From assembly GCA_041662745.1 (NCBI GenBank), contig JBAZRV010000004.1, positions 70,315-134,314 of the forward strand: a DNA stretch of 64,000 nucleotides, read 5' to 3'. This document shows positions 37,229 to 42,166 of this stretch, piece by piece. A program made the position numbers and the translations under genes. Position 1 is the stretch's first letter. Every line of letters starts with the position of its first letter. Under the pieces are notes generated by a model. It did no database searches. It saw only the letters and a program-made list of their open reading frames with translations, and had not been told where the DNA came from. This DNA is from Patescibacteria group bacterium. Its GTDB lineage: Bacteria > Patescibacteriota > Patescibacteriia > 2-01-FULL-39-33.

Positions 37229-38260
37229 ATGCGCATAATCTACGGCTTGGCCGGTCAAGGATTCGGCCACAGCGCCCGCTCGCGGGAAATTCTTAGGCAC
37301 TTAGCCGCCGCCGGCCACGACATTAAAGTTTTTACCTATGGCCAAGGGGCGTTTTTTTTGCACCATGATTTTGACGTCTTTGAAATCCCCGGATTAACCT
37401 TAAGCTATAAAAACAACCGAGTCAGGTACTTCAAAACGCTGCTGGATAACACCAAAAAGGTTTATGGCCAAACGCGGCAATGGAACGGGATTAAGAAAGT
37501 TTTTAAAGACTTCGCGCCGGAACTGGTGATTACTGATTTTGAACCGCTAACGGCCTTACTGGCAAAAAAATTCCGCCTGCCCCTTGTTTCCATAGATAAC
37601 CAGCATCAATTGACCAACACTGAAATAAAAATCAGCCAGAAACATCTCAAAGATCTGATGACCGACAAAGCGATTATCAGGCTGGTTATCTGGAGCGCCA
37701 AGTATTACCTGATAACTTCATTTTTTAAAACCAAGGTAAAGAAAAAAAATACTTTTCTGTTTGCGCCGATTATCCGGCAGGAAGTATCGGATTTGCAACC
37801 GGTCAAAGGCGATTACTTTTTGGTTTACGAAGGCGCCGATATGGGCCGGCTGACTGAATTGTTCAAGAGATTGCCGTACCAGTTCGTTATTTTCGGGCCG
37901 CAACGCCAAGGCGAAGAAGGCAATATTATTTTTAAGCATTTTGACACGCATGAGTGGTTGATGTATCTGAACCGCTGCCGCGCCGTTATCGGCACCGCCG
38001 GTTTAAGTTTATTGGGCGAAGCCATCTACCTTAAAAAACCCTATCTGGCCCTGCCGATTAAACGCCAAATTGAACAGCTGGTCAACGCGCAATATTTGCA
38101 ACGGCTGGGCTACGGCCAATTCAGTTATGATTTAACCGGCGAAGAATTTGAGGATTTCGTCGCTCGGTTGCCTCAATATGAAGATAAATTGACTTTCGCC
38201 GATGCCTGTGGCAATGAAGAACTGTTCAAAAAGCTGGATGAGATCATTGCCGGCTTATAA
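37229..38260 (+). CDS. Glycosyltransferase, MGT/MJ1255 (GT28/GT1-like) family
   Basis: The N-terminus reads MRIIYGLAGQGFGHSARS and the protein has a C-terminal UDP-sugar-binding half. Confidence 0.7.
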   Translation: MRIIYGLAGQGFGHSARSREILRHLAAAGHDIKVFTYGQGAFFLHHDFDVFEIPGLTLSYKNNRVRYFKTLLDNTKKVYGQTRQWNGIKKVFKDFAPELVITDFEPLTALLAKKFRLPLVSIDNQHQLTNTEIKISQKHLKDLMTDKAIIRLVIWSAKYYLITSFFKTKVKKKNTFLFAPIIRQEVSDLQPVKGDYFLVYEGADMGRLTELFKRLPYQFVIFGPQRQGEEGNIIFKHFDTHEWLMYLNRCRAVIGTAGLSLLGEAIYLKKPYLALPIKRQIEQLVNAQYLQRLGYGQFSYDLTGEEFEDFVARLPQYEDKLTFADACGNEELFKKLDEIIAGL

Positions 38261-38309
38261 ACCGATCTTGATTTTTTCAAATGACTGTGATAAAATAGTG
38301 AAAGATTTC

Positions 38310-38355
38310 GGGTCGTTAGCTCAACCAGTAGAGCAGTTACCTCTTAAGCAAACGG
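38310..38355 (+). pseudogene. Truncated 5' copy of tRNA-Lys (acceptor 5' strand, D-arm and anticodon arm with CTT), diverged from the intact gene
   Basis: The copy reads GGGTCGTTAGCTCAACCAGTAGAGCAGTTACCTCTTAAGCAAACGG. The intact gene at 38498 reads ...CAGCTGGTAGAGCAGTTGCCTCTTAAGCAAACGG. Confidence 0.7.
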
Positions 38356-38454
38356 GTTGCCGTCTGGGCAACGGGCAGAAGCGAGACGAGCCGAAAGCGA
38401 AGTCGAGCGTTGATGAATGCGACCATAAGGAGCATTCAGTGCTACCCAGGAACG
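38356..38454 (+). ncRNA. Candidate structured RNA element E, copy 1 (99 nt)
   Basis: A 5' hairpin GTTGCC-GTCT-GGGCAAC and a 3' hairpin TGAATGC-GACCATAAGGA-GCATTCA are present. A second copy at 41939-42036 is near-identical and its 5' hairpin carries compensatory changes. Confidence 0.5.
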
Positions 38455-38497
38455 TCAGGTTCAAGAACCTGCGACATTAAATGAAAAGAAAGATTTC

Positions 38498-38570
38498 GGG
38501 TCGTTAGCTCAGCTGGTAGAGCAGTTGCCTCTTAAGCAAACGGTCGCAGGTTCAAATCCTGCACGACCCA
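38498..38570 (+). tRNA. tRNA-Lys (CTT)
   Basis: The cloverleaf is GGGTCGT-TA-GCTCAGCTGGTAGAGC-A-GTTGC-CTCTTAA-GCAA.. / T-arm GCAGGTTCAAATCCTGC / ACGACCC-A. Confidence 0.85.
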
Positions 38571-38623
38571 CTAATGACGGAGGCGCACCAAAAGTGCGTC
38601 TCTAATCGTGTAAGCATCCGCAA

Positions 38624-38675
38624 GCACCCCTGGTGAAATGGATATCGCGACTGGCTTCGGACCAGTTATCGGGGG
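38624..38675 (+). pseudogene. Truncated 5' copy of tRNA-Arg (through the variable loop and T-stem 5' strand), diverged
   Basis: The copy reads GCACCCCTGGTGAAATGGATATCGCGACTGGCTTCGGACCAGTTATCGGGGG. The intact gene starts GCACCCATGG...TTATTGGGGG. Confidence 0.7.
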
Positions 38676-38853
38676 TCGCGAAGCGACAAGATAGCAATGA
38701 ACTGCGAGTTATGTCGGAAGACATAACGAGCGAGTGAATGCCGCCGAGGCGCCGGTGGCGCGGCGGCGCTATCCCTGGACAACGAATTGTTTCGTTTTCT
38801 GACGAAACAGTGAGGCGAAAAGAACCGCCAATAATAATATAAACTAAAAATCT
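38676..38853 (+). ncRNA. Candidate structured element E', about 178 nt, partly related to E
   Basis: Hairpins are GTTATGTC-GGAA-GACATAAC, the GC-rich GCCGCCG...CGGCGGC and TGTTTCG-TTTTCTGA-CGAAACA. The core CGAGCGAGTGAATGC..CCC.GGA.AACG matches E. Confidence 0.4.
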
Positions 38854-38855
38854 AA

Positions 38856-38927
38856 GCACCCATGGTGAAATGGATATCACGACTGGCTTCGGACCAGTTA
38901 TTGGGGGTTCGAATCCCTCTGGGTGCA
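38856..38927 (+). tRNA. tRNA-Arg (TCG)
   Basis: The cloverleaf is GCACCCA-TG-GTGA-AATGGATA-TCAC-G-ACTGG-CTTCGGA-CCAGT-TATT-GGGGG-TTCGAAT-CCCTC-TGGGTGC-A. Confidence 0.85.
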
Positions 38928-38949
38928 TAATTAAAATTAAAACAAAACT

Positions 38950-39849
38950 ATGGCTATTTTCTGGATTATCCTTGCTATTTTTGTTCTGATCGTCTTGGTT
39001 TTTGCTTCCGCTTTCACCGTCCAGCAACAAACCGTGGCCGTCATTCAAAGATTCGGCAAATTCAAAAAAATGTCCCATTCCGGACTCAATCTGCGCCTTC
39101 CCCTGATTGACCACATTGCCGGTCATATCAGTTTGCGCATCAACCAATTGGACGTTAAAATTGAAACCAAAACCGAAGACAATGTCTTTGTCCATGTTAC
39201 CGTTTCCGTGCAGTACCAGGTTTTGCCGGAAAAATTGTATGACGCTTTTTATAAATTAATCAACCCTAAAGAGCAGATTTCCTCTTACGTCTTTGATATT
39301 GTCCGCGCTCAAGTTCCGAAACTGAAACTGGACAATGTTTTTGAAAACAAAGATGAGATTGCCAATGCCGTTAACACCGAATTATCGCAAGCCATGTCTG
39401 ACTTCGGCTACCAAATCATCAAATCGTTGGTTACTGATATTGAACCTGACGCCCAAGTCAAAGCGGCCATGAATGAAATCAATTCCGCTCAGCGCCTGCG
39501 CGTCGCCGCCCAGGAAAAAGGCGAGGCGGAAAAAGTTTTGATGGTAAAAAAGGCGGAAGCCGAATCAGAAAGCAAAAAATTGCAAGGCGAGGGCATCGCC
39601 AATCAGCGTCGCGCCATTATCAACGGCCTCAAGGAATCGGTTGACGATTTCCAAAAATCAATCAAAGGATCAACCGCCCATGATGTCATGAATCTGGTAA
39701 TGGTCACTCAATATTTTGACACCCTGAAAGACATCGGCGCCTCTTCCAAGGCCAATGCCGTTTTCATCCCGCACTCTCCGGGAGCGGTTGCCGACTTAAC
39801 GGCGCAAATCCGCGACGCCCTGTTGCAGGCCGACGGAGCCAAACAATAA
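38950..39849 (+). CDS. SPFH/Band 7 (stomatin/prohibitin-like) domain protein
   Basis: The protein has an N-terminal TM helix and an SPFH core (AVIQRFGKF...NLRLPLIDH...). Confidence 0.8.
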   Translation: MAIFWIILAIFVLIVLVFASAFTVQQQTVAVIQRFGKFKKMSHSGLNLRLPLIDHIAGHISLRINQLDVKIETKTEDNVFVHVTVSVQYQVLPEKLYDAFYKLINPKEQISSYVFDIVRAQVPKLKLDNVFENKDEIANAVNTELSQAMSDFGYQIIKSLVTDIEPDAQVKAAMNEINSAQRLRVAAQEKGEAEKVLMVKKAEAESESKKLQGEGIANQRRAIINGLKESVDDFQKSIKGSTAHDVMNLVMVTQYFDTLKDIGASSKANAVFIPHSPGAVADLTAQIRDALLQADGAKQ

Positions 39850-39874
39850 GCTTAACAGTTCCAACCGATAAAAA

Positions 39875-39905
39875 CAGCCCGCTTTAACAGCGGGCTGTTT
39901 TATTG
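39875..39905 (+). terminator. Rho-independent terminator
   Basis: The hairpin CAGCCCGC-TTTAACA-GCGGGCTG is followed by TTTTATT. Confidence 0.75.
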
Positions 39906-39993
39906 ACAAAAAAATCATTTATGATAAGCTGACTGAAGCTTAAAACTCATGAACTTAATGAATTGCAAAAATCAACCGGGGAGGATCAGCCAG

Positions 39994-41816: not shown

Positions 41817-41890
41817 AGCGGCGAAAGGGATTCGAACCCTCGACCTCTTCCTTGGCAAGGAAGCGTTCTAGCCAACTGAACTACCGCCGC
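41817..41890 (-). tRNA. tRNA-Gly (GCC)
   Basis: The cloverleaf is GCGGCGG-TA-GTTCAGTTGGCTAGAAC-G-CTTCC-TTGCCAA-GGAAG-AGGTC-GAGGGTTCGAATCCCTT-TCGCCGC-U. Confidence 0.85.
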
Positions 41891-41938
41891 ACAATAAAAT
41901 ATAAAGTAACTTTTCCGCCACAGAGGTCGACCAAAGGT

Positions 41939-42036
41939 CGTTCCGGGGCAGCGCTGAATGCTCCTGATGGTCGCATTCATCGGCACTCGATTTCGCTTTC
42001 AGCTCATCTCGTTGCTGCCCGTTCAGATTACTGAAC
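41939..42036 (-). ncRNA. Candidate structured RNA element E, copy 2
   Basis: The minus-strand sequence GTTCAG-TAAT-CTGAAC GGGCAGCAACGAGATGAGCTGAAAGCGAAATCGAGTGCCGATGAATGCGACCATCAGGAGCATTCAGCGCTGCCCCGGAACG is collinear with copy 1. Confidence 0.5.
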
Positions 42037-42083
42037 CCTCTTCCTTGGCAAGGAAGCGTTCTAGCCAACTGAACTACCGCCGC
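42037..42083 (-). pseudogene. Truncated 5' copy of tRNA-Gly (47 nt, identical to the intact gene through the anticodon arm)
   Basis: The copy reads GCGGCGGTAGTTCAGTTGGCTAGAACGCTTCCTTGCCAAGGAAGAGG and is fused to element E. Confidence 0.7.
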
Positions 42084-42166
42084 ACAAATACCAATCAAAT
42101 ACGACTAAAACGAACATCGGTATTTTAACAAAAAATATCGCCTAAGTCAAGAGCGCTTTTTATAAC

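Follow-up and report, generated by a model that had tools for sequence, protein, structure and literature searches.

E, a structured element joined to tRNA genes in Patescibacteria: a candidate core of small tRNA-specific insertion elements

Tyrosine-integrase elements use particular sublocations of tRNA genes, namely the anticodon loop, the T-loop and the 3' end. In Caldiarchaeum, a layout in which a 5' tRNA fragment is followed by an element and then by a tRNA has been reported (PMC3293823). A recent paper on tRNA introns of Patescibacteria describes group I introns at position 35/36, and T-loop or fragment cases are not mentioned in it. Here we analyse a stretch of 64,000 nucleotides from a Patescibacteria contig (JBAZRV010000004.1, positions 70,315 to 134,314; the window), in which copies of a non-coding element, designated E, are found at three tRNA genes. 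A literature search yielded no description of this element. E belongs to a previously uncatalogued, structurally constrained family whose copies are always joined to a tRNA and lie in the orientation of that tRNA. We consider the chances somewhat better than even that E is the core of small, non-coding, structure-dependent insertion elements of Patescibacteria that are specific to tRNA genes.

A structured family joined to tRNA genes

The window is an ordinary piece of chromosome from a Buchananbacteria-like member of the Patescibacteria. ARAGORN and Rfam agree on eight tRNA genes, three of which (Lys, Arg and Gly) have their own 5' part duplicated in front of them on the same strand. These three loci had been picked out in an earlier sequence-only reading of the DNA, the positions of which proved accurate: the intact genes were returned by both programs and the partial copies lie where they had been placed. 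The components of the three loci are listed below; R1 is the covariance model of the E core, and P0, P1 and H3 denote hairpins and stems.

38268-38296, + strand: sigma-70-like promoter (TTGATT, 17-nt spacer, TG-TAAAAT) 5' of the partial tRNA-Lys copy
38301-38309, + strand: leader AAAGATTTC 5' of the partial tRNA-Lys copy; second occurrence at 38489-38497, before the intact gene
38310-38355, + strand: partial tRNA-Lys copy, positions 1-46; 42/46 identical to the intact gene, weak tRNA-model match
38356-38372, + strand: hairpin P0 of Lys, GTTGCC GTCT GGGCAAC
38373-38456, + strand: E core (E-Lys), closing stem P1 round two hairpins (three-way junction) and tail AGGAACG; R1, 78.3 bits
38455-38488, + strand: decayed rest of the upstream tRNA-Lys, with T arm TCAGGTTCAAGAACCTG, acceptor strand CGACA and 3' flank
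38498-38570, + strand: intact tRNA-Lys(CTT) (ARAGORN, Rfam)
38624-38676, + strand: partial tRNA-Arg copy, positions 1-53, stopping in the T-loop; 50/53 identical to the intact gene
38675-38687, + strand: hairpin P0', GTCGC GAA GCGAC, where the tRNA fragment meets E'
38689-38784, + strand: E' core, a divergent member, with P1 GATAGC/GCTATC, two hairpins and tail CCTGGACAACG; R1, 27 bits, E-value 2e-4
38786-38829, + strand: right-end module of E', with H3 (38786-38811), conserved linker GAGGCGAA (38812-38819) and a small hairpin
38856-38927, + strand: intact tRNA-Arg(TCG) (ARAGORN, Rfam)
42122-42150, - strand: sigma-70-like promoter (TTGACT, 17-nt spacer, TG-TAAAAT) 5' of the partial tRNA-Gly copy
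42037-42083, - strand: partial tRNA-Gly copy, positions 1-47; 47/47 identical to the intact gene, tRNA model 27.7 bits
42021-42036, - strand: hairpin P0 of Gly, GTTCAG TAAT CTGAAC
41937-42020, - strand: E core, second copy (E-Gly); R1, 80.9 bits
41891-41936, - strand: decayed remainder plus spacer, from E to the intact tRNA-Gly
41817-41890, - strand: intact tRNA-Gly(GCC) (ARAGORN, Rfam)

The partial copies had been said to carry substitutions, which holds for Lys and Arg, while the Gly copy has none; the 5' flank that had been reported as part of the Lys duplication is seen in the repeated leader. The description of the Lys copy as a 5' part has to be widened. The 5' copy is there, but comparison with the intact gene and with a related locus (L004) made the decayed remainder recognisable, so that the upstream copy is a whole tRNA gene with E in its variable loop, whose T arm, acceptor strand and 3' flank have decayed, and not a 5' half alone. 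The cores of E-Lys and E-Gly (84 nt each) are identical at 71/84 positions, and motifs common to both occur nowhere else in the window and gave about 0 matches in 100 shuffles. The P0 hairpins of these two loci show three compensatory pair differences. The right-end module of E' (hairpin plus GAGGCGGA) was also found in L045, L049, L067 and L092.

A pattern scan of metagenomes recovered, among chance matches, ten related loci. R1 was built from 11 cores and detects 19 distinct copies in 14 Patescibacteria sequence sources (the window plus the loci). Three of them were absent from the training set, namely E' (27 bits), the L004 orthologue of E' (34 bits) and an L006 copy (57 bits); the kinship of E' to E, which had originally been deduced from short motifs, is thus recovered by a model built without E', and again through the L004 orthologue. 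In the 19 copies, 95.1% of stem cells form standard pairs and 20 of the 23 stem pairs have changed on both sides. None of 500 shuffles reached these pairing and covariation values, and pairing fell to about 33% in a control in which the partners were slid. The structure is therefore conserved beyond the window copies, and the proposal that these tRNA-associated elements form a family of no known class stands: all 19 copies are joined to a tRNA, covariation is strong and Rfam offers no match. The core recurs at no fewer than (at least) 10 different tRNA genes.

The core measures 84-106 nt and the element with its end modules 100-250 nt, with no open reading frame (ORF) inside. From 5' to 3' it consists of a closing stem of 5-7 bp, AA, hairpin H1 with GCGAG...CGAGCG (tandem G-A) at its base, hairpin H2 and the tail C(N)GG(N)A(N)ACG; in many copies an extra hairpin and the conserved linker follow 3' of the tail. 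Purines occupy 12 of the 13 conserved unpaired positions on the tRNA-sense strand, which points to that strand as the folded one.

Searches for a known identity covered several kinds of resource. Rfam 15 reported only tRNAs in the window at the gathering threshold and nothing credible over E on three short stretches at E-value <= 10, so that E falls into none of its families. By blastn, annotated phages and plasmids gave no match, and IMG/VR viral contigs gave no true match and one chance match in coding DNA. The pattern GAGCNGAAAGCGAANTCGAG, which is too specific for the subfamily of the window genome, had 33 matches in genome contigs where 17-70 were expected; a Vogelbacteria match proved unrelated on inspection and the other 32, from non-Patescibacteria records, were judged to be chance. 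Several candidates were discarded. The core does not match the tRNA model, the junction strands of hammerhead and hairpin ribozymes misfit by eye and have no Rfam match here, and the hatchet (RF02678) and twister-sister (RF02681) ribozymes likewise gave no Rfam match. Pfam scans of the window and seven loci revealed no integrase, recombinase, transposase or reverse transcriptase near the copies examined, and the gene tables of L001, L004, L006 and L042-L045 contain no recombinase. No autonomous copy, with a recombinase beside E, was present in seven loci, and no Y1 transposase (TnpA or RAYT) was seen within the 64-kb window.

Some GC-rich structured cores are missed by R1 (L067 8766-8917 and 9262-9344, L042 13340-13446). 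They fill the identical slot, preceded by a segment antisense to the T-loop and followed by a 3' tRNA fragment, so that several core families have a common insertion architecture.

Insertion points, antisense segment and comparison of relatives

Most relatives have a common layout that begins with the intact tRNA, about 17 nt of flank, a short loop and an inverted copy of the flank and of tRNA positions 76-53; these are followed by the E core, tail, hairpin, linker GAGGCGGA and a direct copy of tRNA positions 58-76, which sometimes extends over 14-17 nt of flank. The window has a duplicated tRNA 5' part with the intact gene downstream of it, whereas most relatives have a duplicated 3' part and the intact gene upstream. 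The use of tRNA 5' halves, suggested by the sequence-only reading, thus applies to the window lineage and not to the majority of relatives. The layout of the window is the rarer orientation, in which E becomes a transcribed leader. The centre of the palindrome in the common layout is often also a two-way terminator. In the inverted arm, the acceptor part is decayed and the stretch beside E is perfect.

Insertions were found in the D-loop (L006), in the variable loop between 46 and 47 (window Lys and Gly; tRNA-Gly of L084, L045 and L042), in the T-loop between 57 and 58 (most copies, including window Arg) and at the 3' end (L043, L068). Each is accompanied by a duplicated piece of the host tRNA, so that one intact tRNA remains. 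The duplications are 19-53 nt long and of variable extent, and no T-stem/T-loop core is present at the right junction, GAGGCGGA/AATCCC.

T-loop-type copies carry, immediately 5' of E, a stretch of 9-14 nt that is exactly reverse-complementary to the host tRNA, starting at G53. This antisense segment, or "guide", covers tRNA positions 53-66 and hence runs across the 57/58 insertion point. The cognate tRNA gave the best or tied-best antisense run in 8/8 T-loop-type copies, against a non-cognate baseline of 6 (TCGAAC); the segment therefore tracks the host's own variant of T-loop and T-stem. At the window loci, Lys among them, and at tRNA-Gly in L084, L045 and L042, the 3' strand of P0 takes the guide slot.

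Close relatives of the window have both filled and empty sites. In L004 the gene order of the window is kept (the protein of the neighbouring glycosyltransferase gene is 90% identical), and a single tRNA-Lys and a single tRNA-Gly with ancestral flanks are present, both without E; L004 does have the Arg 5' copy with E'. L006 (89% identical) lacks the Lys and the Arg element and has an E copy inside the D-loop of a tRNA-Gly 5' fragment, with the intact tRNA-Gly behind it. L045 carries E copies behind tRNA-Gly, tRNA-Leu and tRNA-Val. The tRNA-Val site of L042 is empty, and its downstream flank matches the flank beyond the tRNA fragment in L045; at tRNA-Leu, L042 has an element with a different core from that of L045. 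From these filled and empty sites it follows that E is gained and lost. E-Lys and E-Gly (85% identical) are nearest to each other among all copies, which indicates spread between two tRNA genes within the window lineage. When relatives were checked for simple tandem tRNA duplication, none was ever seen without E; the Lys and Gly sites were empty instead.

L067 contains a tandem array of units. In L049, 1.5 kb separate the intact tRNA-Trp from the end that consists of E and the tRNA fragment. Within this 1.5 kb (L049 952-2072) lie a radical-SAM/SPASM-like ORF of 332 aa and a Cys-rich peptide ORF of 34 aa, which appear to be cargo of the E-bounded insert resembling genes for ribosomally synthesised and post-translationally modified peptides (RiPPs). 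Elsewhere in the same locus (419-808), a tRNA-Trp 5' fragment reaching to the anticodon loop is followed by a GC hairpin, an 83-aa ORF and the intact tRNA-Trp. This repeats the order of fragment, insert and intact tRNA seen in the window, with a different and protein-coding insert; the 83-aa ORF is GIY-YIG nuclease-like by eye only.

The same comparisons revealed further changes around these tRNA genes. Between the glycosyltransferase gene and tRNA-Lys, L006 (11060-11360) has an unrelated repeat block of about eight tandem TTTGTCATTCCCG-type units plus GCGGGAATCCAGGTT inverted repeats, which is absent from the window and L004. Window (38498-38570 and 38856-38927) and L006 (11374-11576) also differ in the tRNA genes themselves: their tRNA-Lys genes have identical bodies and fully compensated but completely different acceptor stems (GGGTCGT versus GCGCTCA), and they have two types of tRNA-Arg(TCG) gene, the window type showing an unusual GTGAAATGGATATCAC D arm that is also found in L067. 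This suggests whole or partial replacement of tRNA genes, possibly linked to the elements. Near the syntenic tRNA cluster of L043 (8204-8569) there is a gene of the bAvd/23S_rRNA_IVP type. bAvd is the accessory protein of diversity-generating retroelements, and its presence hints that reverse transcriptases may be at hand in these genomes.

At the window loci, sigma-70-like promoters were found only 5' of the partial copies (the Lys site is the sole one on the + strand in 38150-39000), and no sense-strand terminator lies between partial copies and intact genes. E is therefore part of the tRNA precursor, provided that the intact tRNAs are expressed. In the common layout, E stands behind a terminator-like hairpin and its expression would require read-through. 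Two other hairpins in this region were noted. One (GAGGCGCACC AAAA GTGCGTCTC, 38580-38603), between tRNA-Lys and the Arg unit and without a T-run, is kept in the window, L004 and L006 though the surrounding spacers diverge, and may be a processing signal. At 39816-39980, weak Rfam matches (STnc370, Trp/Thr leaders, OrzO-P) cluster on both strands; they appear to reflect one strong two-way terminator hairpin between Band_7 and DeoC-like genes and not small RNA genes.

Weighing the explanations

The sequence-only reading had offered three explanations: a miniature non-autonomous mobile or integrative element, an att-site remnant, or a structured RNA processed from tRNA precursors. The first is the best supported, on account of the empty sites in syntenic relatives, the variety of tRNAs and loops, the tandem arrays and the one cargo-carrying copy. 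Under this explanation, the antisense segment (invariant TCGAAC against GTTCGA) would recognise the T-loop during insertion, or would be copied from it, and the element would insert as a folded single strand. Alternatively, a small circle with a tRNA segment might recombine with the gene in the manner of a Campbell-type integration, or target-primed synthesis might take place and give rise to the inverted arm. Each of these routes (T-loop pairing, primed synthesis, circle recombination) would explain part of the anatomy. The enzyme would be supplied in trans or by the host, and only products with an intact tRNA would survive. In the window, E would be transcribed from the tRNA promoter as a leader, which RNase P would cut off.

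Several observations weigh against this explanation. Window and L004 agree at 149/155 positions (96%) of the E' unit, while their spacers next to it differ by about 35-40%, with indels; in the same way, the tRNA-Gly unit from P0 to the end of the fragment is near-invariant in three species (L084, L045 and L042) and the spacers on either side are not. An RNA useful to the host would account for such conservation at least as well as a purely selfish insert. Neither an enzyme nor an excised form nor an autonomous copy was found, and we thus infer mobility from comparisons only. Duplications of 19-36 nt together with an inverted arm match no single known transposition chemistry. In the copies with a P0 hairpin (Lys, Gly and Arg of the window; tRNA-Gly of L084, L045 and L042), the guide slot pairs locally and is not a match to the host T-loop. 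Finally, stem mismatches comprise 8 G-U and 8 A-C, so that the decay of individual copies has no RNA-type strand bias.

The alternative that survives best is that the host uses E primarily as a functional small RNA, for instance one that binds a protein or ligand or acts as a ribozyme, and expresses and matures it with pieces of tRNA as a scaffold. The adjoining T arm, acceptor strand or 5' half would allow RNase P and 3'-end enzymes to excise E, and gain and loss would be gene turnover, not transposition. We give this a minor though serious share of the probability. It agrees with the conservation in place, well above that of the neighbouring spacers, with the purine-rich loops on the tRNA-sense strand, with tandem G-A at the base of H1 and, by eye, of H3, and with the co-transcription of E and tRNAs in the window that the promoter positions suggest. 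The tRNA-Gly units of L084, L045 and L042 can moreover be fitted to a cloverleaf in which E replaces the anticodon loop, and they show 100% conservation of T arm and acceptor strand; RNAalifold, applied to these three units with regard to the acceptor-like stem, returned an alternative fold with zero covariation. However, the commonest layout puts E behind a terminator-like palindrome, and several diverged copies occur per genome, at varied tRNAs and loops, and are missing from relatives of 89-90% identity. Tandem arrays and nested replacements are also poorly accounted for, in most T-loop copies the scaffold's pairing on the acceptor side has decayed, and G-U and A-C mismatches are equally frequent. 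A functional role need not compete with insertion: the structured RNA processed from tRNA precursors may be true as well, and in-place conservation, purine-rich loops and tRNA-like packaging make it conceivable that E serves also, or chiefly, as a functional RNA.

A more radical form of the insertion hypothesis makes E the RNA or single-stranded DNA module of a self-targeting element, with a branched fold and a programmable guide and without an element-encoded protein. The guide would pair with the universal T-loop of tRNAs (GTTCGA) and direct the element's own insertion, by ribozyme chemistry or by a recruited host enzyme, perhaps from a rod-like circle of 250-300 nt in which the 3' stem of the tRNA is capped by E and by the terminator hairpin. 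We hold this to be rather improbable, and see a modest chance that E represents a new nucleic-acid-guided mechanism of insertion.

About as doubtful is the notion that E is an attP-like arm left by integrase-type elements that target tRNAs, an "att-only" element mobilisable in trans like cis-mobilisable elements. In its favour, the insert is flanked by direct repeats of a tRNA segment and the tRNA is made whole again, as happens with classical tRNA-integrating elements; T-loop and 3'-end sublocations are among those used, one copy encloses 1.5 kb of cargo, and the element in the archaeal precedent for the order of fragment, element and tRNA bears a recombinase (PMC3293823). Against it stand the lack of an integrase in or near the copies examined and of the T-stem/T-loop core that an attR should have at the right junction. 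Three compensating helices and purine-rich loops suggest a folded single strand and not protein-binding duplex arms, variable-loop and D-loop insertions occur too, and the guide is inverted. The attP remnant is thus less likely than the tRNA-specific insertion element, and a captured degenerate intron less likely still. The latter belongs to the very improbable view that ordinary tandem or tandem-inversion duplications of tRNAs arose at palindromes (T arm, terminator) and that E is a captured degenerate group I-like intron or repeat, for which one may cite the Lys locus (which can be read as a tandem duplication that spans -9 to about +12 and whose joint shows microhomology), the forward-inverted-forward order with one joint at the terminator hairpin, as in tandem inversion duplications, and the resemblance of the guide to an internal guide sequence, but which founders on relatives that never have the duplication without E, on the recurrence of one covarying core at so many tRNA genes and, for the intron version, on a length too short, the missing group I core and Rfam match, and the missing U-G splice site and terminal G.

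Significance and comparison with described systems

Patescibacteria genomes have a size of about 1 Mb. With inserts at 3 of the 8 tRNA genes of the window and at 3 of 5 in a related locus, E elements place a considerable burden, uncatalogued until now, on the translation apparatus in a major bacterial radiation. The tRNA pseudogenes, tandem or inverted tRNA fragments and long palindromes that they create will confuse tRNA annotation and assembly, and the elements may account for acceptor-stem or whole-gene replacement of tRNAs between close relatives. With an antisense segment matched to the host beside its conserved fold, E offers a candidate case of nucleic-acid-guided insertion into the T-loop, the "most conserved sequence in biology"; confirmation would make this mechanistically interesting and perhaps useful as a tool. 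With the covariance model and the pairs of empty and filled sites, the question can be tested in public metagenomes and metatranscriptomes.

Among described systems, miniature inverted-repeat transposable elements were rejected as a class for E, because its inverted arms are copies of the host tRNA that differ from locus to locus and its duplications (19-53 nt) have no fixed length. Group I introns of bacterial tRNA genes, which are common in Patescibacteria, share with E that they are non-coding and structured and occur in the same phylum, and in both a guide close to the 5' end pairs with sequence to either side of the insertion point (P1/P10 in the introns), a resemblance that does not imply membership. 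Unlike these introns, E has no group I core (P3-P9) according to Rfam Intron_gpI at E-value <= 10, and its core of 84-106 nt does not reach half of their minimum length (group I introns measure about 190 nt or more). E also lies outside the anticodon loop, has a purine at position 57, ends in ...GCGGA and possesses neither a U-G nor a terminal G; the gene copies that it interrupts are decayed, and a separate, intact gene always stands beside them.

IS200/IS605 elements and their derivatives (PATEs, and REPINs mobilised by RAYT) resemble E in that they are non-coding, hairpin-based and probably dependent on single strands. The derivatives are mobilised in trans, as we propose for E, and often lie just behind genes. 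Both systems have a target-complementary segment 5' of the hairpin foot, which in E is TCGAAC against GTTCGA. In contrast to E, IS200/IS605 elements make no target duplication and have guides of 4-5 nt and simple subterminal hairpins, whereas in E 19-36 nt of target are duplicated, the inverted arm reaches up to about 40 nt and the core is branched.

Folded single-stranded DNA sites, such as integron attC and the attP of CTX phage, resemble E by anatomy only: structure and not sequence is conserved, inverted arms enclose a variable and sometimes branched tip, the site lies at the end of a unit, and units form tandem arrays (L067 for E). They differ from E in their targets (attI or dif, not a tRNA loop) and in their motifs, and E has a long asymmetric 3' module of tail, hairpin and linker.

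The comparison with tyrosine-integrase elements, including those of the archaeal pNOB8 type, is set apart by several features of E. It measures only 100-250 nt and has no integrase in or near the copies examined, it is a compensating three-way junction abutted by an inverted copy of the T-loop region, and it duplicates either the 5' or the 3' part of the tRNA and uses variable-loop and D-loop sites too. The two also share features: both insert within a tRNA gene and bring a replacement piece that keeps the tRNA intact, both leave a displaced tRNA fragment at the other end and use the T-loop and 3'-end sublocations, and, in the case of one E copy, both bound cargo genes.

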